NCBI RefSeq assembly: GCF_004010195.1
Contig: NC_057718.1
Span: 41,263,208 to 41,327,207, forward strand
Origin: Chiloscyllium plagiosum
Taxonomy: Eukaryota
Reading direction: 5' to 3'
Length of the DNA stretch: 64,000 nucleotides
In this document: piece after piece, positions 1,016-61,200 of the stretch
Layout: each line of letters starts with the position of its first letter
Position numbering within the stretch: the first letter of the stretch is position 1
Position numbers and translations under genes: made by a program
The notes under the pieces: generated by a model
Databases searched by the model: none
Told to the model about the DNA's origin: nothing
What the model saw: only the letters and a program-made list of their open reading frames with translations

Positions 1016-2789
1016 GATTCAGAGAGATTGTTTTGTTGGGGCCGTTTTGATCAGCAAGGTGTATATCCATAATTTATTTCAAGAAAACCTATTGGATAGA
1101 GTGTTGTCAACTTGAAGATAAAGAACAGGGTATTGTGGTAAGTTTAGATGGGTACTGTAGAGAACAGCAAAAGGTCCAGCTGGGGTGAAGTAAATTACAT
1201 ATAACAAAACAATCTTTGCTTCTTTAACATCATGCATGCAAGGGTCATTTCAAAACTCAAAAATAAGCAGTGCAAGATATATTACTTGTCTGGGGGGAAG
1301 CAACACTTTTGACCAAGAAATTCAGCATTTAAAAATTGACTGTAGTGAAAATAATAATTTTACTTTGTTAAACAATTGGGAGCATTTTTACATTCTCAGC
1401 ACAGAAGAAACACCATACAATCCAAGTAAGGTGACACCTGTGAAAATCACATCAGTTAAAGGTGGAAAGAGGATGTGGAAAGGTGGATAGAAAGAGACTG
1501 ATCACTGGGAGGAAGGAATTAAGCAGGTGGAAGTGGATGGACAAATTCAGATACATGGAGTGAAGCCAAGAACCATACACAATTAGAGGTTAGGAGGGGA
1601 GACAAAATCTATAGTACAATATTTGGATATACAGGTATGAATACTTGAAGCACCAAGGACAAGTTAGCAGTCTTAACTGACGACCTCAACATTGTATTGT
1701 CATAATCCCTGTATAGACTGTTAAATTTAGAAGGGAAGAATATTGAACTTGCAGTTGATAGCTGAAAGGATGACACAACAGGATTTCATGGCTCAAGACT
1801 TTTTTCTGTACCAATTGAATGAATTGAATTATTCTCATATTGAAGAGACAGTATTTCTGTAGCTCACTTATACTTTAAACTGCAGAATATTCTTTTTCCT
1901 TTGCACATTTCACACAACTGAAAGCTTTACTTTTCAGGGTACAGTCTCCCTTTATTAAAAATTGAATTCTTCTGAATCTGTCCAAAGTGATTCTTAGCTC
2001 CTTTGGGTTTACTTCTGTTCCTTCTTTTTCCCAGCCTTGCACATTTTAATACCAGAACTGTCTTCCAAGGTAAAGTTGGGCCTGGGGATTCAATAGTGAC
2101 ATTAAATAGTGACCTTGCAACTTTGTTTCAAATTGTTATTGATTTGGTGTCTGTAATCCAAGAGTGAGTCCCCATATACCTTCTTACACAGTGAACCTTA
2201 GAAACTTTCACTATCAAGCTGCTCTCTCGCTCCTAGATCCAGGGTGTCTGTCTGTCAAAGCCCATCTCTATGGAGATATGAATCACATGGTCCTCATATC
2301 TGGACAGAGATGTTGATTAACTGTCTTAAGAAGTAATGGGCTGATTAAAACATAACTGTTTGCAGCCCAATATTCTCAACAAATTCCTATGAAGTTGGAG
2401 ACCAGCAGATTAACCAGCTTAAAAACAAATGCTGCTGCCATGTGTGAATAACATACACCTTCTTTATAGCAAAAGAATGCAGGCCTCTCTTTCAGCTTTG
2501 ACAGCCACTTCACCCAGACCTGATATTAAGGGAATTTTAGAACAGATGATTCCCTTCATATGTCCCATTGTCATTGATCAATAAGCCTTTAAAAGCCACG
2601 TTCATGATATCATCACTGCATCATGGCATGTGACATGAGAGCATAAAGATCTCATTTTCCATCTAATCTTCGAACACTTTAAACCTGACACTTTACTAAT
2701 AGCATGTTGCTCTTTTGCAACATTTTAGCGTAACACTAGCCCGGACACTTATGTGCGTGATGAATTTAATATTTGCATTTCATATTTAA

Positions 2790-16942: not shown

Positions 16943-19010
16943 TCAGAGCTCCCACCCCTGACCCCGGTTCAGACAGAGCTCCCATCCCTGACCCCAGTTC
17001 AGACAGAGCTCCCACCCCTGACCCCGGTTCAGACAGAGCTCCCACCCCTGACCCCGGTTCAGAGAGAGCGCCCCACGACCCTGGCTCAGACAGAGCTCCC
17101 ACCCCTGACCCCGGATCAGCGGTCCAGACAGAGCTCCCATCCCTGACCCCGACTCAGACAGAGCTCCAAACCCTGACCCCGGTTCAGACAGAGCTCCCAC
17201 CCCTGACCCCGGTCCAGACAGAGCTCCCATCCCTGACCCCGACTCAGACAGAGCTCCCACCCCTGACCCCAGTTCAGACAGAGCTCCCACCCCTGACCCC
17301 GGTCCAGACAGAGCTCCCATCCCTGACCCCGACTCAGACAGAGCTCCAAACCCTGACCCCGGTTCAGACAGAGCTCCCACCCCTGACCCCGGTTCAGACA
17401 GAGCTCCCACCCCTGAGCGTGACTCAGACAGAGCTCCAACCCCTGACCCCGACTCAGACAGAGCTCCCAACCCTGAGCGTGACTCAGACAGAGCTCCCAC
17501 CCCTTACCCGGTTCAGACATAGCTCCCACCCCTTATCCTGGTTCAGACAGAGCTCCAACCCCTGACCCCAGTTCAGACAGAGCTCCCACCTCTGACCCCA
17601 GTTCAGACAGAGCTCCCATCTTGACCCCGGCTCAGACTGAGGTCTCACCCCTAACCCCGGTTCAGACACAGCTCCCACCCCTGACCCCGACTCAGACAGA
17701 CCACCCACCACAGACCCCGGATCAGACAGAGCACCCACCCTTGACCCCTGTTCAGACAGAGCTCACACCCCTGATCCCGACTCAGACAGAGCTCCCACTC
17801 CTGACTCCGGTTCAGACAGACGTTTTTATTTTTATTTTTATTATAGAGTCAGAGATGTACAGCACAGAAACAGACCCTTTGATCCAACCTGTCCATGCCA
17901 ACCAGGTATCCTAAATTTATCTAGTCCCATTTGCCAGCATTTGACCCATATCTCTCTAAACCATTCCATTCATGTACCCATCCACATGCCTTTTAAATGT
18001 TATAATTGTACCCGCCTCCACCACTTCCTCTGGCAGCTCATTCTATACACTTTTCACCCCTGACCCTGGTTCAGACAGAGCTACCACTCCTGACCCCGGT
18101 TCAGAGAGAGCTCCCACGCCTGACCCCGGTTCAGAGAGAGCTTCCACGCCTGACCCCGGTTCAGAGAGAGCGCCTCCCGACCCTGGCTCAGACAGAGCTC
18201 CCACCTCTGACCCCAGTTCAGACAGAGCTCCCACCTCTGACCCCAGTTCAGACAGAGCTCCCATCCTTGACCCCGGCTCAGACTGAGGTCTCACCCCTAA
18301 CCCCGGTTCAGACACAGCTCCCACCCCTGACCCCGACTCAGACAGACCACCCACCACAGACCCTGGATCAAACAGAGCACCCACCCTTGACCCCTGTTCA
18401 GACAGAGCTCACACCCCTGACCCCGGTTCAGACAGAGCTCCCCAGCTGACGCCAGGTCAGTCAGAGCACCCACCCTTGACCTCGACTCAGACAGAGTTCT
18501 CACTCCCAACCCCGGTTCAGACAGAACTCCCAGCCCTGACTCCGGTTCAGACAGAGCTCCCACCCCCGACTCCGATCCTTACACAGCTCCCACACCTGAC
18601 CCTGGTTCAGACAGAGCTCCCACCCCTGACCCCAATCCAGACAGAGCTCCCACCGACCCCGATCCGGACACAGCACCCACCCCTGACCCCGATCCAGACA
18701 CAGCTCCCACCCCTGAGTGCGACTCAGACAGAGCTCCCACCCCTGACCCCAATCCAGACACAGCTCCCACCCCTGATCCCAGTTCAGACAGAGCTCCCAC
18801 CCCTGATCCCAGTTCAGACAGTGTTCCCGCTCTTGACCCCGACTTAGACACAGCTCCCACCCCTGACCCCGGTTCAGACAGAGCTCCCACCCCTGAACCC
18901 GGTTCAGACAGAGCTCCCCACCTGACCCTGGCTCAGACAGAGCTCCCACCCCTGACCCCAGTTCAGACAGAGCTCCCACCCTGGACCACGGTTCAGACAG
19001 AACTCCCACG
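16943..19010. repeat. 30-bp GC-rich minisatellite (consensus CAGACAGAGCTCCCACCCCTGACCCCGGTT), interrupted at about 17821-18055
   Basis: Dozens of tandem units are directly visible; they generate the repetitive ORFs (PPLTPVQTEL / GSGVGALSEP). Confidence 0.97.
17841..18052 (-). mobile_element. CR1 3'-end fragment inside the minisatellite
   Basis: Reverse complement matches the CR1 3' end at about 24950-25170 (gaatgagctgccagaggaagtggtggagg). Confidence 0.85.
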
Positions 19011-27165: not shown

Positions 27166-28546
27166 CCAAACCAAAGGAGTAGCCATGGGTACCCGCATGG
27201 GCCCCAGATATGCCTGCCTCTTCGTAAGATATGTGGAACAGTCCATCTTCTGCAGCTACACTGGCACCCCCCCCCCCCCACCCCGCACCTTTTCCTCCGC
27301 TACCTCGATGACTATATCGGCGCCCGCACCTTTTCCTCCGCTACCTCGATGACTATATCGGCGCTGCCTTGTGCTCCCACGAGGGGGTTGAACAGTTCAT
27401 CCACTTTACTAACACCTTCCACCCTGACCTCAAATTTACTTGGACCGTCTCAGACTCCTCCCTCCCCTTCCTAGACCTCTCCATTTCTATCTCGGATAAC
27501 CGAATCAACACGGACATTTACTATACACCGACCGACTCCCATAGCTACCTAGTCTACACCTCCTCCCACCCTGCCCCCTGTAAAAACACCATCCCACATT
27601 CCCAATTCCTTCGTCTCTGCCGCATCTGCTCCCAGGAGGACCAGTTCCAATACCGAACAACCCAGATGGCATCTTTCTTCAAAGACCGCAAATTCCCCCC
27701 AGACGTGGTCGACGATGCTCTCCACCACATCTCCTCCACTTCCCGCTCCTCTGCCCTTGAGCCACGCTCCTCCAATCACCACCAGGACAGAACCCCACTG
27801 GTCCTCACCTACCACCCCACCAACCTCCATATACATCGTATCATCCGTCGTCATTTCCGCCACCTCCAAACGGACCCCACCACCAGGGATATATTTCNNN
27901 NNNNNNNNNNNNNNNNNNNNNNNNNNNNNNNNNNNNNNNNNNNNNNNNNNNNNNNNNNNNNNNNNNNNNNNNNNNNNNNNNNNNNNNNNNNNNNNNNNNN
28001 NNNNNNNNNNNNNNNNNNNNNNNNNNNNNNNNNNNNNNNNNNNNNNNNNNNNNNNNNNNNNNNNNNNNNNNNNNNNNNNNNNNNNNNNNNNNNNNNNNNN
28101 NNNNNNNNNNNNNNNNNNNNNNNNNNNNNNNNNNNNNNNNNNNNNNNNNNNNNNNNNNNNNNNNNNNNNNNNNNNNNNNNNNNNNNNNNNNNNNNNNNNN
28201 NNNNNNNNNNNNNNNNNNNNNNNNNNNNNNNNNNNNNNNNNNNNNNNNNNNNNNNNNNNNNNNNNNNNNNNNNNNNNNNNNNNNNNNNNNNNNNNNNNNN
28301 NNNNNNNNNNNNNNNNNNNNNNTATCACCCTCACCTTAACCTCCTTCCACCTATCGCATTTCTCCCAAGTCCCTCCTCCCTACCTTTTATCTTAGCCTGC
28401 TTGGCACACTTTCCTCATTCCTGAAGAAGGGCTCATGCCCGAAACATCGATTCTCCTGCTCCTTGGATGCTGCCTGACCTGCTGCGCTTTTCCAGCAACA
28501 CATTTTCAGCTCTGATCTCTGGCATCTGCAGTCCTCACTTTCTCCT
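27166..28546 (+). mobile_element. Penelope-like element spanning the assembly gap
   Basis: RT motifs QTKGVAMGTRMGP, RYLDD, LPFLDL, IPHSQFLRL; 3' pLTR with hammerhead core at 28421-28445; flanked by AGTATCAACTCTT (27153-27165) and AGTGTCAACTCTT (28547-28559). Confidence 0.92.
27898..28322. other. Assembly gap (425 N)
   Basis: Run of N. Confidence 1.
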
Positions 28547-42392: not shown

Positions 42393-43352
42393 GCTGAAAA
42401 TGTGTTGCTGGAACAGCGCAGCAGGTCAGGCAGCATCCAGAGAACAGGAGAATCGACGTTTCGGGCAAAAGCCCTTCTTCAGGAATGAGGAAAGTGTGTC
42501 CAGCAGGCTAAGATAAAAGGTAAGGAGGAGGGAGTGGCGCAAGTCTTGCACCTCCTGCGGTTGCAGGGGAAGGTGGCGCAAGTCTTGCACCTCCTGCGGT
42601 TGCAGGGGAAGGTGGCGCAAGTCTTGCACCTCCTGCGGTTGCAGGGGAAGGTGGCGCAAGTCTTGCACCTCCTGCGGTTGCAGGGGAAGGTGGCGCAAGT
42701 CTTGCACCTCCTGCGGTTGCAGGGGAAGGTGGCGCAAGTCTTGCACCTCCTGCGGTTGCAGGGGAAGGTGGCGCAAGTCTTGCACCTCCTGCGGTTGCAG
42801 GGGAAGGTGGCGCAAGTCTTGCACCTCCTGCGGTTGCAGGGGAAGGTGCGGGGAGTGGAGGTTGGGTTGGTGGGGGGTGTGGATCTGATGAGGGAGTCAC
42901 GGAGGGAGTGGTCTTTACGGAATGCTGATGGGGAGGGGAGGGAAATATATCCTTGGTGCTGGGGTCTGTTTGGAGGTGGCGGAAGTGACGGCGGATGATG
43001 CGCTGTACATGGAGATTGGTGGGGTGGTAGGTGAGGACCAGTGGGGTTCTGTCCTGGTGGCGGTTGGAGGGGTGGGGCTCAAGGGCGGAGGAGCGGGAAG
43101 TGGAAGAGATGCGGAGGAGGGCATCGTCGACCACGTCGGGGGGGAAATTGCGGTCCTTGAAGAAGGAGGCCATCTGGGTTGTACGTTTTTGGAACTGGTC
43201 CTCCTGGGACACACTTTCCTCATTCCTGAAGAAGGGCTTATGCCCGAAACGTTGATTCTCCTGTTCCCTGAATGCTGCCTGACCTGCTGCGCTGTTCCAG
43301 CAACACATTTTCAGCTCTGATCTCCAGCATCTGCAGACCTCACTTTCTCCTC
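42393..43352 (-). mobile_element. Penelope-like insertion with inverted pLTR ends and internal tandem array
   Basis: TSD CAGCATCAAATAGA at 42379-42392 and 43353-43366; RT-thumb region closely matches 27630-27897; hammerhead cores at 42458-42482 (-) and 43226-43250 (+). Confidence 0.92.
42534..42845. repeat. 8 identical copies of a 39-bp tandem repeat
   Basis: Unit GTGGCGCAAGTCTTGCACCTCCTGCGGTTGCAGGGGAAG; the minus frame reads TFPCNRRRCKTCA. Confidence 0.97.
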
Positions 43353-50256: not shown

Positions 50257-50472
50257 TAAAGTTTAAAATCACATCATGCCAGGTTATTGACCAACAGGTT
50301 TATTTGGAAGCACAAGCTTTCGGAACACTGTTCCTTCATCAGGTAGCTATTTGATGATGGAGCAGCAGTCGGACAGCTTATGCTTCCAAATAAACCTGTT
50401 GGACTCTAACCTGGCGTTGTGCGATTTTTAACTTTGTCCACCCCAGTCCAGCACTGGCTCCTTCACATCATG
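50257..50472. mobile_element. Fold-back mini PLE
   Basis: Inverted pLTR halves; hammerhead core at 50317-50342 (-); ACCAAGGGG repeated at 50248-50256 and 50473-50481. Confidence 0.8.
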
Positions 50473-52176
50473 ACCAAGGGGCAAGTTTATATACATATAC
50501 TTACTTTTAAAAATTACTTTGGTGTTAAGTTGGAATGTTCTTTTAAGATTCAAACACTGTTGAAGGCTTTGATCAAATCCTCTCTCACTGCCCTTTCTAC
50601 CTGGAACTTGACTACAGAGGCCACTAGTGCAGATGCAAAGGATATAAAATTTGATTTTCCAGTCGAACAAGCAGAGGGTGCAACAAATACTGGCAGCTCA
50701 TGCGATTGCTTAGCTGCTGCTCGAGGCAAATATTTCTTGAGATCCTCAGGCTTTCATCTTCATGCACGAAGCTAAATCATTGCAGGTAATGAGCATCTGA
50801 AAATTGACCGAAATGAATTTCCAGTATCTAGCATTAATAGGGCACAACGTTATGTGTCACAAAGCTGGTCCTTTTCTCTAAAAGCTGGTTTCTCAAGGAT
50901 ACTGTGTCTTTGGTTTTTTTCAGAGGGGCCGTAAAACAGGCCGGGCTCCGAAACGACTGGTTTGGCACAGAGATGAAAAGGGTGTTGTAAGGCCTTTTTG
51001 TTTAAACATAAACAGATGAAACTTTAGGCCAAAGTTTTCCCGATTTAGAAGTGACCTGTATCATGAAAGGCAAGTGGTCAGTTCTGGCAGCTGAATTCTT
51101 GTTGTTAGTCAGTTCAGTTCAGCAGTGGGCTGTGTGGAAAAAGGCTGCTAGATTCTCTCACCTTCTGCCCTCCTAACTTTGACCTGTAAGCCTCTATTTC
51201 AGTTTTACTCAATGTTTAAGAGGTTTGTTTATTGGGACTGTTGTGTATTTTTGGAACAGCATAATTAAGTCTAGTTTGGATAGACTGAGTTCTGTGGATG
51301 AGGTAAAAACAATGACTGCAGATGCTGGAAACCAGATTCTGGATTAGTGGTGCTGGAAGAGCACGGCAGTTCAGGCAGCATCCAAGGAGCTTCGAAATCA
51401 ACGTTTCGGGCAAAAGCCCTTCATCAGGAATAAAGGCAGTGAGCCTGGAGCGTGGAGAGATAAGCTAGAGGAGGGGCCCTAAAGGAGCCTTCCACATCCA
51501 TCAAAGTTTTACTTGCACATCCACTATAACCATTTATTGTATCCGTTGCTCCCGATGCGGTCTCCTCTACATTGGGGAGATTAGGCGCCTCCTAGCAGAG
51601 CGCTTTAGGAACACCTCCGGGACACCCACACCAATCAACCACACCGCCCCGTGGCCCAACATTTCAACTCCCCCTCCCACTCTGCCGAGGACATGGAGGT
51701 CCTGGGCCTCCTTCACCGCCGCTCCCTCACCACCAGACGCCTGGAGGAAGAACACCTCATCTTCCGCCTCGGAACACTTCAACCCCAGGGCAACAATCTG
51801 AACTTCAACAGCTACCACATTTCCCCTTCCCCCACCTCATCCTAGCTTCTAACCTCCAGAAACTCGATCCCCTGACCTGTCCGGACTTGTCCGGCCTGCC
51901 CAGCTCCTTTTCCACCTATCCACTCCACCCTCTCCTCCCTGACCTATCACCTACATCCCCTCCCCCACTCACCCATTGTACTCTATGCCCAGTGATAAGG
52001 GCAGTGTCCTGCTCCTCAGAGCCTCAGGCAGATGCAGTAAGGGATCACCTCCCCAGGGACAGAGCCCAAGAAGTACTATCCACTCTATGCACAGAGCTCC
52101 AACATAAAGTACATCCATACAGGTTAACCTGTTCCGGGAATACCTTTGCATTAAGATATAATGCCCTCTGTCCTAC

Positions 52177-52292
52177 CTGTTCTCCTCCCATGTTGACTAA
52201 AAGCTCAGTCCCATCAGGGTTGAAGGCTACATAGGTGGCTACAAGCACACGGAGGCGATTGTTATAATCAGGCTGTTTCACTGGGAGATGAC
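52177..52292 (-). CDS. WDTC1: WDTC1 exon, 116 nt (GHLPVKQPDYNNRLRVLVATYVAFNPDGTELLVNMGGEQ)
   Basis: Peptide closely matches vertebrate WDTC1 as recalled; cag acceptor after a pyrimidine tract, gtagga donor; phase 1 to 0. Confidence 0.93.
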
Positions 52293-52720
52293 CTGCAGCG
52301 AGGGCGGGGGGGGGGAAAAGAGAGAGAGAGAATTAGTCAGAAACTACAGAATACTGAAATGTCTTTATAGCCAGAGAATCTCAATTAAGCTGAATCTAGT
52401 CAGTGACAATACTTAACTGCAAGAGAAGCTATTCAACTATAAGAGGATTAAATAGCCTCTTTCAAGATCCAAACATGTATTTTCTGGCACAAATATTGTT
52501 GAAGTGATCACAGAAATGGAGAATTAGGGTCATGGATATCTCTGTTCAGAACAGATAGTTACACATTTCCCCAGCGGTTCAAGTTTCAACCATAACTTTG
52601 ATATAAATGTGATGAAAAATCTTTAAAGATACATAGCAGAAGAATGTAGTATGATCAGACACAAAGGGGCATTTCTGTTGGATTAACAGATTAGCTGAAG
52701 GCTTTATCTTTTAGTGATAC

Positions 52721-52854
52721 TGGTACACATTGCACATCCTCTCAGTTACCTTTCACTGGTACCACTAACAAACCCATGAGCAAATCCCTGCTCTAATAAT
52801 AGCCTGTTCAAGAAAACAATTAGCATCTTGTAAAGATGACCTATACACAATGGT
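52721..52854. repeat. 134-bp dispersed direct repeat, copy 1
   Basis: Aligns without gaps to 54448-54581 with 10 mismatches (hand count). Confidence 0.9.
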
Positions 52855-53567
52855 TAGCACAAATGTTTGTCTTCTATATATTCTCACACACAAAAATCCC
52901 AATAAATCTCTATCCTTTAAGAATTAAAAACCCATGACTTTTGACTACTCAATCCCTGGCACCTGCTTATCATGTGTTCCTTATACAATCTGAGAAACAT
53001 TAGGGGAAATATACTATTAAAGATGCATTATGAAGTTTTCATTCAAGACTCATTTTAATCAAAATCTAACCATGGAATGAGTTACAAGTAGTGTGTGCGT
53101 TTTGGACATTGGGGACACTGATGAGAACAGAAATAGAAACTATTGGAAAAACTCTGCAGGTCTGGCAACATCTGTAGAGAGAAAAACACAATTAACGTTT
53201 CATGTCCAGTGATCCTTTCACTTGACAAAGCTTCACATCAGATTTTATGAAGGCAATTCAATCACAAGTGTTGAAACTGCCTGAGTATCACAGACCTCAA
53301 TTTCTATAATGAAGAACATACCATCTCTCCATTGTCTACACCCTTAATCAGTTCAGTTCAAAGCCAGAAACTTGATTTTGTTCTGGATTGGGTGAGGATT
53401 CCACAATGTACATTATCAGAATCCAGCAGATACATGACAAAGGCTGCTAACACAACATGAGCAATTAAGAGAAAAAAAAAATCACAAACTTGTAAAATAG
53501 AAGTGGCCAAATCTTTGAGGCCTGTAAACATATCTGAGCACATGCATCAAAACAGAACACTGCATAC

Positions 53568-53662
53568 CTGCCACATAATACTGAACAGCTCCATCCGGCA
53601 CAGATTTGTACCTGTCACAAAATGTGTGCAATCCAGGAGTTGAGTTCTGCTTTGCTGCTTTT
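53568..53662 (-). CDS. WDTC1: WDTC1 exon, 95 nt (KAAKQNSTPGLHTFCDRYKSVPDGAVQYYVA)
   Basis: Matches WDTC1 HTFCDR..PDGA.QYYVAG; tag acceptor, gtatgc donor; phase 2 to 1 fits both neighbouring exons. Confidence 0.9.
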
Positions 53663-54447
53663 CTATCAAAAAGCAAAGTAATAAATGGTTACACATAACC
53701 TAGGCCAAAAACTTCAGGCAACAATGAGAACAAATTAGTTAAAAGAAACTGCAGCAATCCTCCATTCAGTTGAGAAAAATTGCTTTAACCTGAATCTTAC
53801 TTTATGCAAATCTACTGATCATGAACTGTGTGATTTGAATACTGTAGTGTGACATGGCCTTATATGCTGATGATAAATAGAAGGGAGCAGATCTGTCCAT
53901 GATACCAGAGTGCAATACCCTCTGACAACCAGAACATAGGAGATGGCAATGACGTCAGACACAAAAGAGAGAGAGAACAAGATGAACTATTTCACGGTTT
54001 CTCTTGCTCGTGACCCTCTACCCTCCATGCTTGAAGCCAACCTAGGATATATTTTCTTTCTCATCAAGTCAGACCTGAAGAACAACCAATCCAAATGTTA
54101 ATGTGGCATTCATTAATTTCACCATCGTCAAACAGTTTTGGGGCTTCAGTGTGGTAGTAGCTGCAGAATTTGTTTTGTAGCTGTGAATGACAGATTCAAC
54201 ACAAGTTTAAGGATTCACATCCCAACCCAGGACTAAGTAGCTTGCCTGTGATAACTGGTTTAAACGTTCTGGGTCAAGAAGAACAGAAAATTGTTAAAGG
54301 TCTTCAGTGAGACAAGCCCTGGGCTCAAAGTATAAAGTCCTAGTAAGATACTGTGCCAACACTCACTTTCTTGGCATATATACAAATAATTACATTAGAG
54401 TGAGGCAAGTGCAGCCAATGTCTCAAGAAGCGAAAGCCAAGAAACAT

Positions 54448-54581
54448 TGGTACACATTGCACATCCTCTCATTTACCTTTCACTGGTATCACAAACAAAC
54501 CCATAAGCACATCCCTGTTCTAATAATAGCCTGTTCGAGAAAACAATTAGCACCTTATAAAGATGACCTATACATAATGGT
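54448..54581. repeat. 134-bp dispersed direct repeat, copy 2
   Basis: See 52721-52854; lies in the adjacent WDTC1 intron. Confidence 0.9.
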
Positions 54582-55044
54582 CATTAGGAAATTAGAAATA
54601 GGGCTGTTACAAATTTAAAGAAAGGAGACAAAGGTAGTCTGCACAACAGGGAATTCAGTTTACATATTTAATGAGCATAATCCAGAATTTTGTCCACCTA
54701 AAAACACATAGGCAGACACGCTGTAGTGGTTCTCTGAATATGGCTCGAGGATCAACTGTCAAAGCAGCAGACACAGTCTTCTGAGCTTTATAATAGAAGT
54801 AATTCACTGTCCAAACCAGACAGGCCAAACTTGTGCTGGCTGTCGAAGTGAGATTTGAGGCACTGCACTTACAATTACTGCAATAATGGGTTCTCCAATA
54901 CTCTGCCTGGTGGGACAAATTTATAAAGTGTAAAATTATGACATTTCTAAATTACAATTGCTGGGTGAAAGAGCACTTTCTGAATGGAATATTCTGGACA
55001 GCTTGCATACATTGCTGTCACTGTACCAGCAGCTTCCACCCTAC

Positions 55045-55227
55045 CTGTGATTATGAATCATACGAATGTCATAAACCCGCACAAAGGGACCACTTGCCCC
55101 GACAGCAAGATAATTATTGTTCTGAGGATTAATGGCTAGGCATTTCGCTTCCACGTGCTGCCCACAATATTCAGTGAGGTCCACCAGTACCTGTGAGCGC
55201 TTACTGCTCTCTCTCAGGTCATACTGC
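55045..55227 (-). CDS. WDTC1: WDTC1 exon, 183 nt (QYDLRESSKRSQVLVDLTEYCGQHVEAKCLAINPQNNNYLAVGASGPFVRVYDIRMIHNH)
   Basis: Own translation of the minus strand matches a WDTC1 WD40 segment; cag acceptor, gtaggg donor; phase 2 to 2. Confidence 0.93.
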
Positions 55228-55276
55228 CTGCAACAGGAAAGGAAAGATGATACATTAACAGAACTGAAGGCAAGTA

Positions 55277-55500
55277 CGCAGAGGATGGTGCATGTGTGGA
55301 ATGAGCTGCCAGAGGAAGTGGTGGAGGCTGGTACAATTGCAACATTTAAAAGGCATCTGAATGTGTGTATGAATAGGAAGGGTTTGGAGGGATATGGGCC
55401 AGATGCTGACAGTTGGGACTAGATTGGGTTGGGATATCTGGTTGGCATGGACGAGTTGGACCGAAGGGTCTGTTTCCATGCTGCGTATCTCTATGACTAT
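55277..55500 (+). mobile_element. CR1 3'-end fragment in a WDTC1 intron
   Basis: QRMVHVWNELPEEVVEAGTIATFKRHL and ctatgactat tail. Confidence 0.88.
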
Positions 55501-56181
55501 GTAAATGGTGGGCCTCTGGGCTTGGGGGAGGAACAGATGACCAGTAATGAAAGTCTGGTACAAAGACAAAACAAATCTAATACACAGTCTTAAAATTCAA
55601 GATGGAGTGATGTGAATATCAAAGACATTGATGACAAGTTGAGGGGTGTGGATGTCTCCCCCACACTATATAGTGTTGCAATGAGTGGCCATTGAGTTAC
55701 TACTAATAAACTGCACCTCCTCCCTCACCTCTATCCAAGGCCGCAAAGGAGCTTTCCACATCCATCAAAGTTTTACCTGCACATCCACTAATATCATTTA
55801 TTGTATCCGTTGCTCCTGATGCGGTCTCCTCTACATTGGGGAGACTGGGCGCCTCCTAGCAGAGCACTTTTGGGAACATCTCTGGGACACCCGCACCAAT
55901 CAACCAAACCACCCCGCGGCCAACATTTCAACTCCCCCTCCCACTCTGCCGGGGACATGGAGGTCCTGGGCCTCCTTCACTGCCGCTCCCTCATCACCAG
56001 ACGCCTGGAGGAAGAACGCCTCATCTTCCGCCTCGGAACACTTCAACCCCAGGGCATCAATGTGGACTTCAACAGTTTCCTCATTTCCCCTTCCCCCACC
56101 TCACCCTTGTTCTAAACCTCCAGCTCAGCACTGTCCCCATGACGTGTCCGGACTTGACCTACCTGCCTATCTCCTTTTCCA

Positions 56182-56378
56182 GGAGAAAGTGAGGGCTGCA
56201 GATGCTGGAGATCAGAGCTGAAAATGTGTTGCTGGAAAAGCGCAGCAGATCAGGCAACATCCAAGGAACAGGAGAATCAACGTTTCAGGCATAAGCCCTT
56301 CTTCAGGAATTTCAGGGTTTCCTGAAGAAGGGCTAATGCCCGAAATGTCAAATCTCCTGTTCCTTGGATGCTGCCTGA
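56182..56378. mobile_element. 197-bp fold-back mini PLE nested in a PLE body
   Basis: 16-bp TSD CCTATCTCCTTTTCCA at 56166-56181 and 56379-56394; two inverted pLTRs around a spacer of about 9 nt. Confidence 0.88.
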
Positions 56379-56535
56379 CCTATCTCCTTTTCCACCTATC
56401 CACTCTACCCTCTCCTCCTTGACCTATCACCTTCATACCCTCCCCCACTCACCCATTGTACTCTATGCTACTTTCTCTCCACCCCCACCCTCCTCTAGCT
56501 TATCTCTCCACGCTCCAGGCTCACTGCCTTTATTC

Positions 56536-56563
56536 CTGATGAAGGGCTTTTGCCCGAAACGTC
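56536..56563 (+). ncRNA. Minimal type I hammerhead ribozyme motif in a PLE pLTR (representative copy)
   Basis: CTGATGA-AGGGC-TTTT-GCCC-GAAA-CGTC; palindromic ACGT in place of stem III, as described for PLE minimal hammerheads. Confidence 0.75.
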
Positions 56564-57265
56564 GATTTCGAAGCTCCTCGGATGCTGCCTGAACTGCTGT
56601 GCTCTTCCAGCACCACTAATCCAGAAATGAGTTCTGTGGATATTCTATATTCTATTCTTTGGATTTCACTCCTTACTTTTGTGAATAAGTTTTTGTCTAT
56701 TTTAAAACCTGGTAGTCAACCTAGCTAACTTACTCTGTGTATTTTTCGCTGCATATTTACCGAAACAAATAGCGAAGTTACGGTCTGGGCTGCCCACTTA
56801 AGAATGTTTTGAGTGATCTGGCCTGGTCCATAACATATGGATCATACAGTTCAAGGTGCTGGTCAAAAGAAATGGTCAAAATGACTTTGATGGGGCCTGG
56901 ATGCACCACTGCAATCTACAAAAGTATGCTGAGCCACTGGCCTCCTGGGCTGCCATCACTGGCCTCACCACAACAATGGCCACTACCTCACTTTGGACTC
57001 ACATTGGGTGACCTCAAGATTTGTTGCACCTGCAAATTGTTAAATAAATGTAGAACATAGGCACAGAATGTGTTCTCTGCTATGAGCACACAAATATTAA
57101 TTAGCATTGTGAAATTATTTTATTCATAACTTTAATACAGGCAGGTAAGCAGAGTAAAAGTAGGACATATTTACATGTTAGTTTTGCGAGTAATACAAAG
57201 ATTGTTGGATTTTAAGTCAATTGTATGGGTTGCTATGCCAGCTGTCTGCCCACATATCACCCTAA

Positions 57266-57458
57266 ATAAAAACCGAAATAACTGCAGGTGCTGTAAATCA
57301 GAGACATAAATAGAAATTGCTGGTAAAGCTCTGGCAGCATCTGTGGAGAGCAATCAGAGTTAAAATTTCAGGTCAAGTGAAGCATTAACTCTGATTTCTC
57401 TCCATAAATGCTGTCAGACCTGCTGAGCTTTTCCAGCAATTTCTATTTTTGTTTTAAG
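57266..57458. mobile_element. Fold-back mini PLE
   Basis: TSD TATCACCCTAA at 57255-57265 and 57459-57469; inverted pLTR halves. Confidence 0.82.
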
Positions 57459-58091
57459 TATCACCCTAATTTTGTTTTGAATAATTTTGATCGATCCAGG
57501 TAGTGCAAATCGGTTAGTGGAAAATACATGTATTAGGAAAAAAATTATTTTCTATAATTTCTGTCTTTTAACACAGTTTCCATTGTTCACCTCTCTAAAT
57601 TGAGAATTCAGAGTTGCCAAGCTGTAAGCTGTCCATGGAATGAAGTTTAAAGAATGCCAAATTGTCAGGTACTCCTCAACTATTTTCTTTTAGTTCCTCT
57701 GTTCTCATTCAGATTTGTTAAAACCTTTCTGACAACTGTTGCTTCTATTGGTTAACTGGTTCAGGAGAGCTATGTTGGGTTTTCCATGAGGTTCCTCCTA
57801 TGTTGCTATTTCTTAGAAGAAGGAAAACAGAGCTCGACATCACACAGCACCAGCACTGCACTTACTGGCATTTTGTAAATGTAGCCAAAATTTTATTTTA
57901 TGATCTTTGCTTCCTGTACACTTGGCCACCTGAATTTTAAAATCTAACCTCATCAGCCTTGTGTTTGAAAGAAGCATACGTTTTTCCCCAAATTTCTGTG
58001 ACTTTTACAAATCCAATAATTGGTTAAAATCATCTCTTATGTTGCACTCGATTGGAAATTGGATGAAAATCTTTGCTTGAGCTTTGAGCTT

Positions 58092-58217
58092 GAACAACAG
58101 GAAGGGTTCTGAGGGACATGGGCCAAATGCTGACAAACAGGACGAGATTCATTTAGAATATCAGGTTGGCATGGACGTGTTGGACTGAAAGGTTGTTTCC
58201 GTCCTGTATGACTCTAA
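58092..58217 (+). mobile_element. CR1 3'-end fragment
   Basis: ggttggcatggacgtgttggactgaa...ctgtatgactcta, like the CR1 tail at about 25100-25160. Confidence 0.7.
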
Positions 58218-61200
58218 AGGAAGATATCAGTTGTTTGTTTTACATATTTACAGACATTGGATTGACTTGTGTTGCCAATTGTGCTCATTGGTCCTGAAAT
58301 GATGCTAAAGCATGGAAGTTCAGAAAGGTTTTAAACTTGATGGTGACTCCTTGAGGTGTTTGAACTGGGGACTGGTGTGGGTAGTCAGTGGCTTGCGAGC
58401 CTGGCCAGACCACGTGTGGAAGCTCCTTGTGCTGATTTACTAAAAGATTGTAATGCTTATTTTTTTTAACTTTATTCTCATTTTTTAACTTATACCATGA
58501 ACACCTATAAGTAATGTCACTTTTCTTCCTTTCTTTTTCCCTTTATTTCTGTATTTCGCATCTAAGACCTAGGTACTTTGCACCTAAGTGATGCCATATG
58601 GGGCGACATTGCAAACTTTTCACTGTACTCCAGTACTTCCGTACTTGAGTGCATGTGACAACAAAGGATATTCTAAAATTCAAAAAAATCACGTCCAATC
58701 AGTAACAGGTCTGGCTTGAACATGCGTCATAGCTCAGTCACCCTTGTACTGCTGTTTCTCTGTCCAATAGTGTATCCTAGTTTGCAAGTTCTATTGTCAC
58801 ATTACCTGTGAAAGGATAGAACGTACCTATGGTGCAACCTGTTCTACATAATATCACTCCAGTGGTCCTGTTTTCCTTCCTCTAAGAAGTGACAACATGC
58901 GAGGACCCTCATGTAAAACCCATTATAACTCTCCTGAAACAGTTAACCAGTTGAACTGACAATTGTCAGAGAGGTTTCTGCAAATCTGAACGAGAACCAA
59001 GGAAACAAAAAGAAAATGATTGAGGAATATCTGACAATTTGTTACTCTGCATTCTATGGGCAGCTTAGTGCTTCGCAACTCTGACTGCTCTATTTAGAGA
59101 GGTGGACAATGGAAGCTATGTTAAAAGGTATTAAATATTGCTGTAAGACATGCATTAACTGGTGTGCACTACCTGGATTGACCAAAATGGTTCTGAAAAA
59201 TTATTAGGATGATATGTGAGCAGGCAACTGGCATAGCAACCCATATAATTGACTTAAAACCCAATAATCAGATGCTGTCAAATGTAAATGCAAAATACGC
59301 ATTTATCCTACTTTTACTGGTTTCCTGCTTCTACAAAAGTTAGAGAAAAAATAATTTCACAGTGCTAATTAATATTTCTGTGTTAATAGCATAGAAAAAA
59401 TATCGTGCTATGTTCTACGTTTATTCAACAATTTCCAGGGAATCCAACCTTAAGGATATGTTATGTTATAAGCTACAGGGTAACATTGTTGATGTTTTTC
59501 ATTTCAGAATTTTCACAATGTAGGGTTTCTTTACTGAATGGTTCCATTTTCAATGTTTCTCCTCACTTGTAACTCTCATTGAATGTTAATTGAGTTGAGA
59601 ATCCAAAACGTAAAAGGCAACGTAATCTTTCCAAGCTTGGTTTTTATAATTATTAGCACATCATTCACAGACTTGCAGATGCAACCGAAAGCATTCTTTT
59701 AATTTAGCATTTGATGACTGAGGAGCTTTAACAAGCATTGGAATTTGGGCGCGGAATGGAATAATTACTAAAATATAATTGCCGCTTGAACAGAGAAACA
59801 CTGTTTAGCTGTTTAATCATTAATCCAGTTGATAAGAAAAATCCCCATTTGACCTGTTTTCATATAGATGGCAGTGGCTCATTTCTCATCGGGTCTCGGG
59901 CTATAAATATTTTGGCATGCTTCAGCAAATTTACAAAGACTGGAAGCTGCTAAAATGCAGTGCCCACAAAATGTCTTTACACCAGCACCTCTGGCAATGT
60001 ACACCGTAGATCACTTAGTGGCAGCAGTGTCTGCTTGGCAAGAGTCCTGTAAAAAATATTTGAAAGGATGTGTGAACTTCCCAAACTCTTGCTCATTGGG
60101 TCACAACCATCAAAGAGGCCAAAGATTGCTGAACCCAAGCAGGAATGGAATCCGTATACGTTTAAATAGAACATGCATTTCATCCATGGGAACACATACT
60201 TTACCTAGTAGCATCATTCTTAAGTGGCAGAAGTTAAATGTTGCTAGTCCCAAAAGAACTATAAATGGGAAGAGGAGCACATAGCTCTGGTGTTCAGATA
60301 TAGAAAATAAATGAAAGGAATTTTGGGAAAAGATAAATGTAAATACTTCTCAAACAAGTTGGAAATTTTATTTTTGTCGTCAATCTTTTTTTTCTCTAAG
60401 ATTTACAGTCAATATTCTTGCCATCCCTTTTAAGTAAAAAACGTATCCCTAAATTTCGTGGGGGTGCTGACAGTGCTATTGCCTGTGTGACTGGAGGTAT
60501 TTTCAAAAGCTCCTAATTTTGAATTCTTTTTCCCTCTGTTTGACTGATATCTGATGCATGATGGAAATCCATCTTAATGAGATGGGGTTTTAAAGTTTGA
60601 TTCTCTCATTTGAAAGTTGTCATGGCTATGGATCACAACCTCAGATCACCTATGGTCATATTGAGCTTTAAGTAGAATATGTGATTTTTTTTTCAAAACA
60701 AAGGAGATGCAGCTAATAACTTGACTCAATAGAAATTCAGAATCTATCTGAAGACAGAGAATGTTGCAACTGACAAAAGTATTGAAGAAGCTTCAAAGGA
60801 CAAAAATGTATGACAAACTGTATTTGCGATCTGTTGGGAGTACCTAAGATGGTGAACATGATAGTTATAAAAGAAGACAGCAGTCTGGGTAAGAGACATT
60901 TTGCATTCCCTTAATTTCAAGGATACAAAGAGACTGAGGTTAAAAACGAGCTTCAAGCTTCATTCGTAGATGTTAGAGGGTTGACATTTTAGTATGTGGG
61001 GTATTGTGCTGGGAGATTCACAGCTCTGATAACAGCTCTGATAATACCTCTGCACAGTAGTTAAAAGTAAGGAAACAATACCCCCTCACACTCTGAGTGC
61101 TGACAGTCACCTACTATCAAAAGGAATCAGGATAAGAGTTCCAATACGCAAACAAAGCCAAAGAATTTCAAAATTAATGATTTGACCACCAAAGTCAACA

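Follow-up and report, generated by a model that had tools for sequence, protein, structure and literature searches.

The three-exon copy of WDTC1 that stands inside a Penelope-like element (PLE) unit on C9 of this shark assembly most likely arose through faulty gap filling during assembly and not through carriage of a gene piece by the PLE. We consider it highly probable that a real PLE insertion had its central gap filled, along repeat homology, with sequence from the WDTC1 gene on C27. The observations behind this reading include the following: the inserted WDTC1 stretch (hereafter the cargo) has no divergence from its donor, the frame that surrounds it is aged, the right joint lies within a PLE resident in the donor gene, and the left joint falls at a point where the assembly stops elsewhere. 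The C9 PLE frame itself is an ordinary Penelope-type insertion with nothing unusual about it. The features are listed in Table 1 with positions in the window, which is the whole stretch of 64,000 nucleotides that was analysed.

Table 1. Features of the C9 unit and of the repeat that it interrupts
Feature	Position	Strand	Remarks
Target duplication of the LTR-like repeat (TATG, 4 bp)	50851..50854 (left copy); 56836-56839 (right copy)		
LTR-like repeat (TG...CA, dispersed, ~640 nt), left part	50855..51299	+	82-87% to 39 other copies scored
Target duplication of the PLE unit (14 bp)	51286..51299 (left copy); 56628..56641 (right copy)		14-mer exactly twice in the window
One-sided PLE tail, 37 nt	51300..51336	-	Tail concept as described in PMC8557442
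Inverted pLTR arm	51337..51475	-	3 differences in 139 nt from right pLTR, all CpG-type
Locus-specific PLE body piece (putative GIY-YIG start)	51476..51642	+	3 private variants; 17/167 positions unlike right body
PLE stretch identical at unrelated loci, likely gap-filler path	51643..51986	+	Ends at the base where other loci enter N
Cargo, 3,756 nt	51987..55742	-	Exact copy of G000:C27:14026657-14030412; likely mis-filled
WDTC1 exon, 116 nt	52177..52292	-	Phase 1-0
WDTC1 exon, 95 nt	53568..53662	-	Phase 2-1
WDTC1 exon, 183 nt	55045..55227	-	Phase 2-2; residues about 160-221
Right PLE body (putative, broken GIY-YIG end, 3' UTR, pLTR)	55743..56627	+	Not the donor's copy: 16 differences/196, 8/165
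Fold-back of another PLE-like family, nested in right body	56182..56378	.	Not seen in 39 other copies scored
LTR-like repeat, right part	56628..56835	+	TATG then adjoins

The cargo comprises WDTC1 introns, three exons, one half of the 13-bp duplication of a PLE in the donor gene and the first 29 nt of that PLE. As the original prediction had stated, all three exons have intact splice sites (AG/GT ends on the minus strand); together they cover residues 160-292, and the region 55044-55229 is 100% identical to the shark WDTC1 protein P0001. A complete WDTC1 that includes the cargo exons was found on C27, as 14 aligned segments covering residues 17-672 in order, which rules out orphan exons or a split gene. 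No further WDTC1 segment occurs in 124 kb of C9 (the window extended by 20 kb at its start and 40 kb at its end), in line with the prediction that no other exon lies nearby, and the proposal that the exons were not there before the LTR-like repeat is supported. The cargo differs from the C27 gene at 0 of 3,756 nt. Only two copies of it were found, in the C9 unit and in the C27 gene, which gives no hint of a mobile composite family. The three-exon block (394 nt) begins in phase 2 and finishes in phase 0 and would therefore also make a poor exon-shuffling module.

The donor WDTC1 intron on C27 holds a PLE of its own that has a duplication of 13 bp and shares the 5' end, and the identity between C9 and C27 ends 29 nt into this PLE (the perfect 29-nt match at 55714-55742). 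The right body is unlike the donor's PLE past these 29 nt, which rules out a simple 5' transduction. At the left joint, the cargo shares a 2-nt match (GC) with the PLE family sequence. The 344 nt that precede this joint (51643-51986) are identical to a locus on C32 (L067), and C32 enters N exactly at 51986. Over 51643-51893, 0 of 251 positions differ among the window, C32, C41, C6 and C19, while on either side of this stretch they diverge by about 5-10% or more, which rules out a young PLE subfamily as the cause of the identical 344 nt. The 25-nt motif that ends at 51986 occurs 41 times, of which 37 continue as the family, three stop at N there and one, that of the window, enters the cargo; the queries used to collect the loci for these comparisons ended at 51986-51988, a choice that favours gaps located there or further on.

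The cargo and its frame differ in age. Compared with 47-57 copies, the frame has 12 variants of its own in 961 nt (a private change of about 1.2% per copy), and these variants, the CpG differences between the arms and a nested insertion with its own duplication mark it as aged. Given the arm divergence (3/139), 81 differences would be expected in the cargo (95% range 17-237), and none was observed (P = 4.5e-5); with CpG sites alone, the mismatch gives P = 0.007. For comparison, two individuals of the same species (X5 and X8) have 5 differences each from the cargo/donor sequence over the whole stretch, and the sister species diverges from it by about 2.5% (34 in 1,314). A fragment transduced by a PLE is expected to be as old as the frame that carries it, and here 0/3,756 stands against 3/139 and 12/961. 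One event means one age; a single capture-and-insertion event is thus disfavoured.

The nested anatomy originally described (a TG...CA repeat with 4-bp flanks, PLE arms and bodies, and WDTC1 exons) is borne out in the assembled sequence, with TATG on both sides, the 14-mer in two copies and inverted arms (51337-51475 and 56488-56626) that are 98% complementary. Combined, the two parts of the split repeat have the termini TGT...ACA. They are contiguous in 14 of the 14 other copies fetched, with an implied overlap of 14 nt in 11 and of 18-25 nt in three, and the 14-mer is present once in uninterrupted repeats; the original claim that an older LTR-like repeat was split by the PLE unit stands. These 14 copies are 610-646 nt long, and an exact 4-bp flank duplication is found in four of them as well as in the window. 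The split repeat has solo-LTR anatomy, judged from its TG...CA ends, its short duplication and its dispersed copies of one length. Within it, the C9 unit shows structural hallmarks of an EN+ PLE insertion: an inverted pLTR, a one-sided tail within the 30-40-nt range and a target duplication.

Complex insertions of EN+ PLEs are described as containing an inverted 5'-truncated copy, a partial tandem and a 30-40-nt tail (PMC8557442, PMC3846280), and such structures often break short-read assemblies (PMC8557442). The C9 unit resembles them in its inverted arm, 37-nt tail, putative C-terminal GIY-YIG remnant and 14-bp duplication, and seven sister insertions in the genome share this frame; it departs from them in that its centre is unique DNA identical to another locus. 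The sister insertions were found among 20 gap-selected stretches, where seven consisted of an inverted arm, an N gap of 1.0-2.0 kb and a pLTR; candidate duplications of 11-16 bp flank six of the seven, and the gaps are shorter than the 4.1 kb at the C9 unit.

Sites of gap closing have high mis-assembly rates in short-read assemblies (PMC9575681). The C9 unit shows marks of a gap-filling false duplication, namely exact identity to a unique locus and joints that lie in repeat homology or at contig stops. Like such duplications, it contains a 100% identical copy of unique sequence entered via a repeat, beside a reused filler path and in a family that is often gapped. No second case was found at base 51986: foreign sequence followed in 0 of the 30 pattern matches examined out of 40. 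All 30 continue as the family, 29 of them bearing a substitution or a small insertion and one a short deletion. N runs occur in 18 of these 30 family loci.

The joints were compared with assembled contigs of four public runs, which drop rare variants and cannot show absence. At the left joint, contigs of three of the four runs (three samples from three studies, one of them the sister species) cease to match at 51987 and extend 845-956 letters unbroken past it; the fourth run is without coverage there. At the right joint, a 288-nt contig in two runs ends one unmatched letter past 55742. From the end points of these matches, we infer that the public-run contigs carry the donor form at both joints; the window's form was not among the contigs listed. 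Donor-form contigs cross both joints in a run flagged as a possible source of the assembly. In X1, contig depth, which is not copy number, was ambiguous, at 7.7-11 over the cargo and 4.9 for one flank contig (9-9.4 when summed at two places). In X11 (the sister species), a 92-nt contig covers 56628-56706 plus 13 letters before it, such as an uninterrupted repeat would give.

These data suggest how the error may have arisen. A PLE unit, carrying an inverted arm and flanked by its 14-bp duplication, sits in the older LTR-like repeat, and its centre was probably a gap, as in the sister insertions. Extension from the left would have run from locus-specific PLE sequence into the commonly used PLE path (51643-51986), halting where other extensions halt. 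Extension from the right would have proceeded leftward through the PLE body, switched at the 29-nt match (55714-55742) onto the C27 intron PLE and continued through 3.7 kb of unique WDTC1 introns and exons until nothing of the gap was left, after which the two ends would have been butted together. The likeliest true content of 51642-55743 is more PLE sequence (a partial tandem). The left and right bodies (17 differences in 167) derive from different templates, so the true centre is no simple single copy. An assembly chimera through PLE repeats had been named as what would overturn the original prediction, on the expectation that the main locus would lack exactly these exons; the chimera is favoured by our data and the expected loss is not, since C27 keeps the exons and the chimera is a duplicating one.

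The original prediction was that a Pack-like PLE unit took up unspliced WDTC1 and inserted it as one event, giving the 14-bp duplication. The frame of inverted arm, tail and duplication is truly in the sequence, and a precedent exists in a rotifer, in which an intron-bearing NRPS gene is enclosed by pLTRs, has an 8-bp duplication and is matched by an empty allele (2013, PMC3846280). C9 likewise has intron-bearing host sequence between pLTRs with a flanking target duplication. In the rotifer, the empty allele was demonstrated and the cargo itself counts as a separate member of its family, whereas the C9 cargo is an internal fragment identical to its source in every letter, its joints match assembly stops and a donor-resident PLE, and the window's form of these joints is in none of the contigs listed. 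A single event would also require the template to change twice, among three different PLE copies, its left joint coincides with an assembly stop, and its cargo was found in two copies only. Above all, a frame with about 1.2% private change and a later nested insertion holds a cargo at 0/3,756, and this age mismatch largely refutes the single event. Together with the non-donor right body and the donor-form contigs, it makes capture and carriage by the PLE very improbable. An older, diverged WDTC1 duplicate that truly lies at C9 and was overwritten by donor reads during assembly would reconcile the aged frame with the identical cargo; no second allele set was seen over the cargo in X1, and X5 and X8 had scattered differences only, among the letters and positions listed, and we regard this as the most far-fetched of the readings.

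A very recent, real capture into the older PLE unit, private or rare, would account for the zero divergence, the homologous right joint and the GC match at the left. A break in the C9 unit might have invaded the C27 intron PLE, with copying of the next 3.7 kb and rejoining through the 2-nt match, or the PLE reverse transcriptase might have switched at the same homology onto antisense WDTC1 RNA; introns would survive since the cargo runs antisense to the PLE strand, or was copied from DNA. It is compatible with contigs, which may miss a rare form, and with a cargo depth in X1 about twice that of one flank contig. It leaves unexplained why an unrelated locus has the same 344 nt, letter for letter, and enters N at the same base, and why there are three gaps at 51986. 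The possible source run has contigs that cross both joints in the donor form, and in X1 the all-cargo contig (depth 8.1) is no deeper than a contig that is 45% donor-only (11). Such a capture is therefore unlikely in our estimation. Equally doubtful is the broader notion that dispersed Penelope copies act as interchromosomal homology bridges, with the 3.7 kb of intron-bearing WDTC1 as an unfixed, mutation-free copy from C27 to C9. In Pack-MULE-type capture and in templated insertion by one-sided ectopic repair, the cargo ages with its frame or is supported by reads. The C9 case resembles these in its unspliced fragment and in having one homologous and one microhomology joint, and differs in that its cargo has neither aged with the frame nor gained read support.

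If the cargo is a gap-filling product, it is a warning that PLE copies in this assembly contain many gaps, some of them filled with sequence that is reused or foreign, and other calls of host DNA captured in Penelope elements here need a check of donor divergence and read support. A recent capture would instead add a new case, in a vertebrate, of exons moved with their introns via PLE homology, and a homology bridge would be a route, caught in the act, by which unspliced exons move in a living shark population. Among the titles and abstract openings listed in literature searches, PLE gene capture is represented by rotifers and by no shark case.

As to the surroundings, no host gene was detected around the C9 unit by Pfam in the 29 of 56 long frames scanned, a search that short exons would escape, and no look-alike stretch of the unit was found among the other genomes scanned. 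Among the 39 other copies scored for each, there was no exact source for the right body or the left 167 nt. The nested fold-back is flanked by its own 16-bp duplication (56166-56181 and 56379-56394) and gave weak hairpin matches only in Rfam. None of nine weak Rfam matches was to a hammerhead ribozyme family, and minimal hammerheads may escape Rfam. The putative C-terminal GIY-YIG remnant reads ...IYCIRCSRCGLLYIGE... in frame, with a Pfam GIY-YIG match on 44 aa (E = 0.19) that is below the cut-off. The upstream part of L153 matched none of the other family copies tested. Longer family copies extend upstream into frames that appear RT-like, a part absent from the C9 copy, and a DKG-coding stretch is readable ahead of gaps in L148, L149 and L151. 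The duplication-bounded copy L147 is 3,584 nt long, and the family unit is thus at least 3,584 nt.

The nested arrangement described in the original prediction is present in the window sequence, with a duplication, an LTR-like repeat, Penelope-like element (PLE) arms and exons. A TGT...ACA repeat, with TATG on either side, encloses a 14-bp duplication. Between the two duplicate copies, a 37-nt tail and then an inverted arm lead into a first PLE body, which 3.7 kb of non-repeat DNA separates from a second body and the pLTR; the right end is 98% complementary to the inverted arm. By reading, the bodies are the end of a GIY-YIG frame (weak Pfam match, E 0.19). The halves of the LTR-like repeat are contiguous in 14/14 other copies fetched (610–646 nt). 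This frame is of a known kind: passages of PMC8557442 describe PLE insertions with partial tandems, an inverted copy alongside and a tail of 30–40 nt. It is also ordinary in this genome, since 7 of 20 stretches, picked mostly for a gap preceding a PLE copy, combine an inverted arm with an N gap (1,017–1,994 nt) and a direct end; the centre is often unassembled. Six of these seven carry 11–16-bp duplication candidates, and another duplication-bounded PLE copy spans 3,584 nt.

Features of the window and of related stretches of the shark genome (G000)
Feature	Position	Description
14-bp duplication	51286-51299; 56628-56641	only occurrences in the window
Reused PLE stretch	51643-51986	344 nt identical to the copy on C32 (L067)
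Core of the reused stretch	51643-51893	0/251 differences among window, C32, C41, C6 and C19; flanking divergence about 5-10% or more
WDTC1 cargo	51987-55742	exact match to C27, 3,756 nt
PLE in donor intron	G000:C27:14026217-14026686 (L001 1030-1497)	about 60 nt from upstream WDTC1 exon
WDTC1 fragment on C16	G000:C16:53965500-53970000 (L166), 2181-2406, minus strand	old, lacking introns; covers residues about 296-375 and spans exon borders
30-nt unit array	16944-19009	2 kb
Tandem duplication	27282-27364	exact, 41 nt, in PLE reverse-transcriptase fragment
39-nt unit array	42534-42848	8.1 copies, 100% identical
Large old inverted repeat	57029-59439	shortly downstream of PLE unit; arms 78-91% alike, several blocks

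The three cargo exons encode WDTC1 residues 160–292, have AG/GT ends and phases 2-2, 2-1 and 1-0, and one is 100% identical to a shark WDTC1 protein. They stand alone in 124 kb of C9, the contig holding the window, and a full WDTC1 gene lies elsewhere, on contig C27 (14 aligned segments in order, residues 17–672); a genome-wide WDTC1 search, with a stricter first look, likewise placed the full gene there. The only further cargo copy found by searching the genome is that on C27, 100% identical. The fragment on C16, which contains a stop and matches one donor exon at about 82% of nucleotides, is a processed retrocopy, unlike the unspliced cargo.

The frame and the cargo differ in age. The arms differ from each other at 3/139 positions, all CpG-type. 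Private variants (relative to 47–57 other copies) number 12 in 961 nt of locus-specific PLE sequence and 4 in 362 nt of the donor PLE; some of them may be inherited from an unsampled source copy. Nested in the right body is a further insertion, flanked by a 16-bp duplication and absent from the 39 other copies scored. Between cargo and donor, 0 differences were observed against 81 expected at the arms' rate (range 17–237; P 4.5e-5; CpG sites alone, P 0.007). Because the frame has aged and the cargo has not diverged, the two cannot stem from one insertion event, and the predicted single-event, Pack-like capture by the PLE unit was not borne out; we regard it as very improbable. Even a true capture would belong to, or vary, a known kind, as an intron-bearing gene truly mobilised by a PLE, with the empty allele demonstrated, is already described in Adineta vaga (passages of PMC3846280).

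The left PLE body is a mosaic, whose first 167 nt match no tested copy exactly. The copy on C32 runs into an N gap exactly at 51986, one base ahead of the cargo, and exact matches on C6 and C19 begin at the same start base, 51643. A 25-nt motif ending at 51986 occurs 41 times: 37 occurrences go on in family sequence, three halt at N there and one, in the window, enters WDTC1. The motif loci were fetched with queries ending at 51986–51988, which biases them toward gaps from that base onward; the C32 case, however, had come to light before base 51986 was chosen. We infer that 51643–51986 is a gap-filling path used at several loci and always halting at one base. No second chimera at this base was found in the 30 pattern matches examined out of 40; N runs occur in 18 of these 30 loci. 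The identical 251–344 nt recur within otherwise diverged copies (L067, L069, L078 and L090, on C32, C6, C19 and C41), and such stretches skew repeat-age estimates from this assembly toward young ages. On the right, the donor intron bears a PLE copy of its own, which has a 13-bp duplication and is interrupted by a gap of 77 N. The window reproduces the junction of the donor PLE and 29 nt of its start before another copy takes over (past that point, 16 of 196 nt and 8 of 165 differ), which places the right joint within PLE homology.

Contigs of four public runs were aligned to window 50400–57300, with X1 flagged as a possible source and X11 being a sister species. At the left joint, which X8 does not cover, contigs of X1, X5 and X11 match from 51987 and extend into 845–956 letters absent from the window; at the right, a 288-nt contig in X1 and X8 stops one unmatched letter past 55742. 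Among the contigs listed, which lose rare variants, those at both inner joints thus appear to fit the donor form. An X11 contig departs from the window at 55715 for 2,072 other letters; the sister species therefore probably lacks the donor PLE. Another X11 contig, of 92 nt over 56628–56706 plus 13 additional letters, is as expected of an empty LTR-like repeat. X1 depth (7.7–11 for cargo contigs, 4.9 for one flank contig) is ambiguous as a guide to copy number.

The frame, the C27 identity, both joint positions, the 344-nt reuse, the same-base gaps and the gapped sister insertions are direct observations. We consider it highly probable that they reflect gap filling: extension would have proceeded into a gap in the centre of the PLE unit from its two edges. 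Coming from the right, it would have used the 29 nt of perfect PLE match to cross onto the C27 intron and then traversed unique C27 sequence up to the point where the left extension had stalled. Such PLE structures often trouble short-read assemblies, and gap-closing sites are prone to high mis-assembly rates (passages of PMC8557442 and PMC9575681, respectively). A very recent, rare ectopic copying of WDTC1 into the older C9 unit via the same PLE homology would account for the zero divergence but leaves the coincidence with assembly stop points unexplained, and we hold it improbable. The window sequence is as described, and the WDTC1 cargo within the PLE is most likely absent from the animal. 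No published account of this locus was found, judged from titles and abstract openings.

Further repeats were also observed. The 41-nt tandem duplication follows a C run, 530 nt from a 425-N gap, and may be another filling slip. The 39-nt array may be a genuine minisatellite of recent origin or the product of a filling loop. In L153, the gap preceding a PLE end is itself preceded by tandem units of several hundred nt, which belong to a different repeat containing T-rich stretches.
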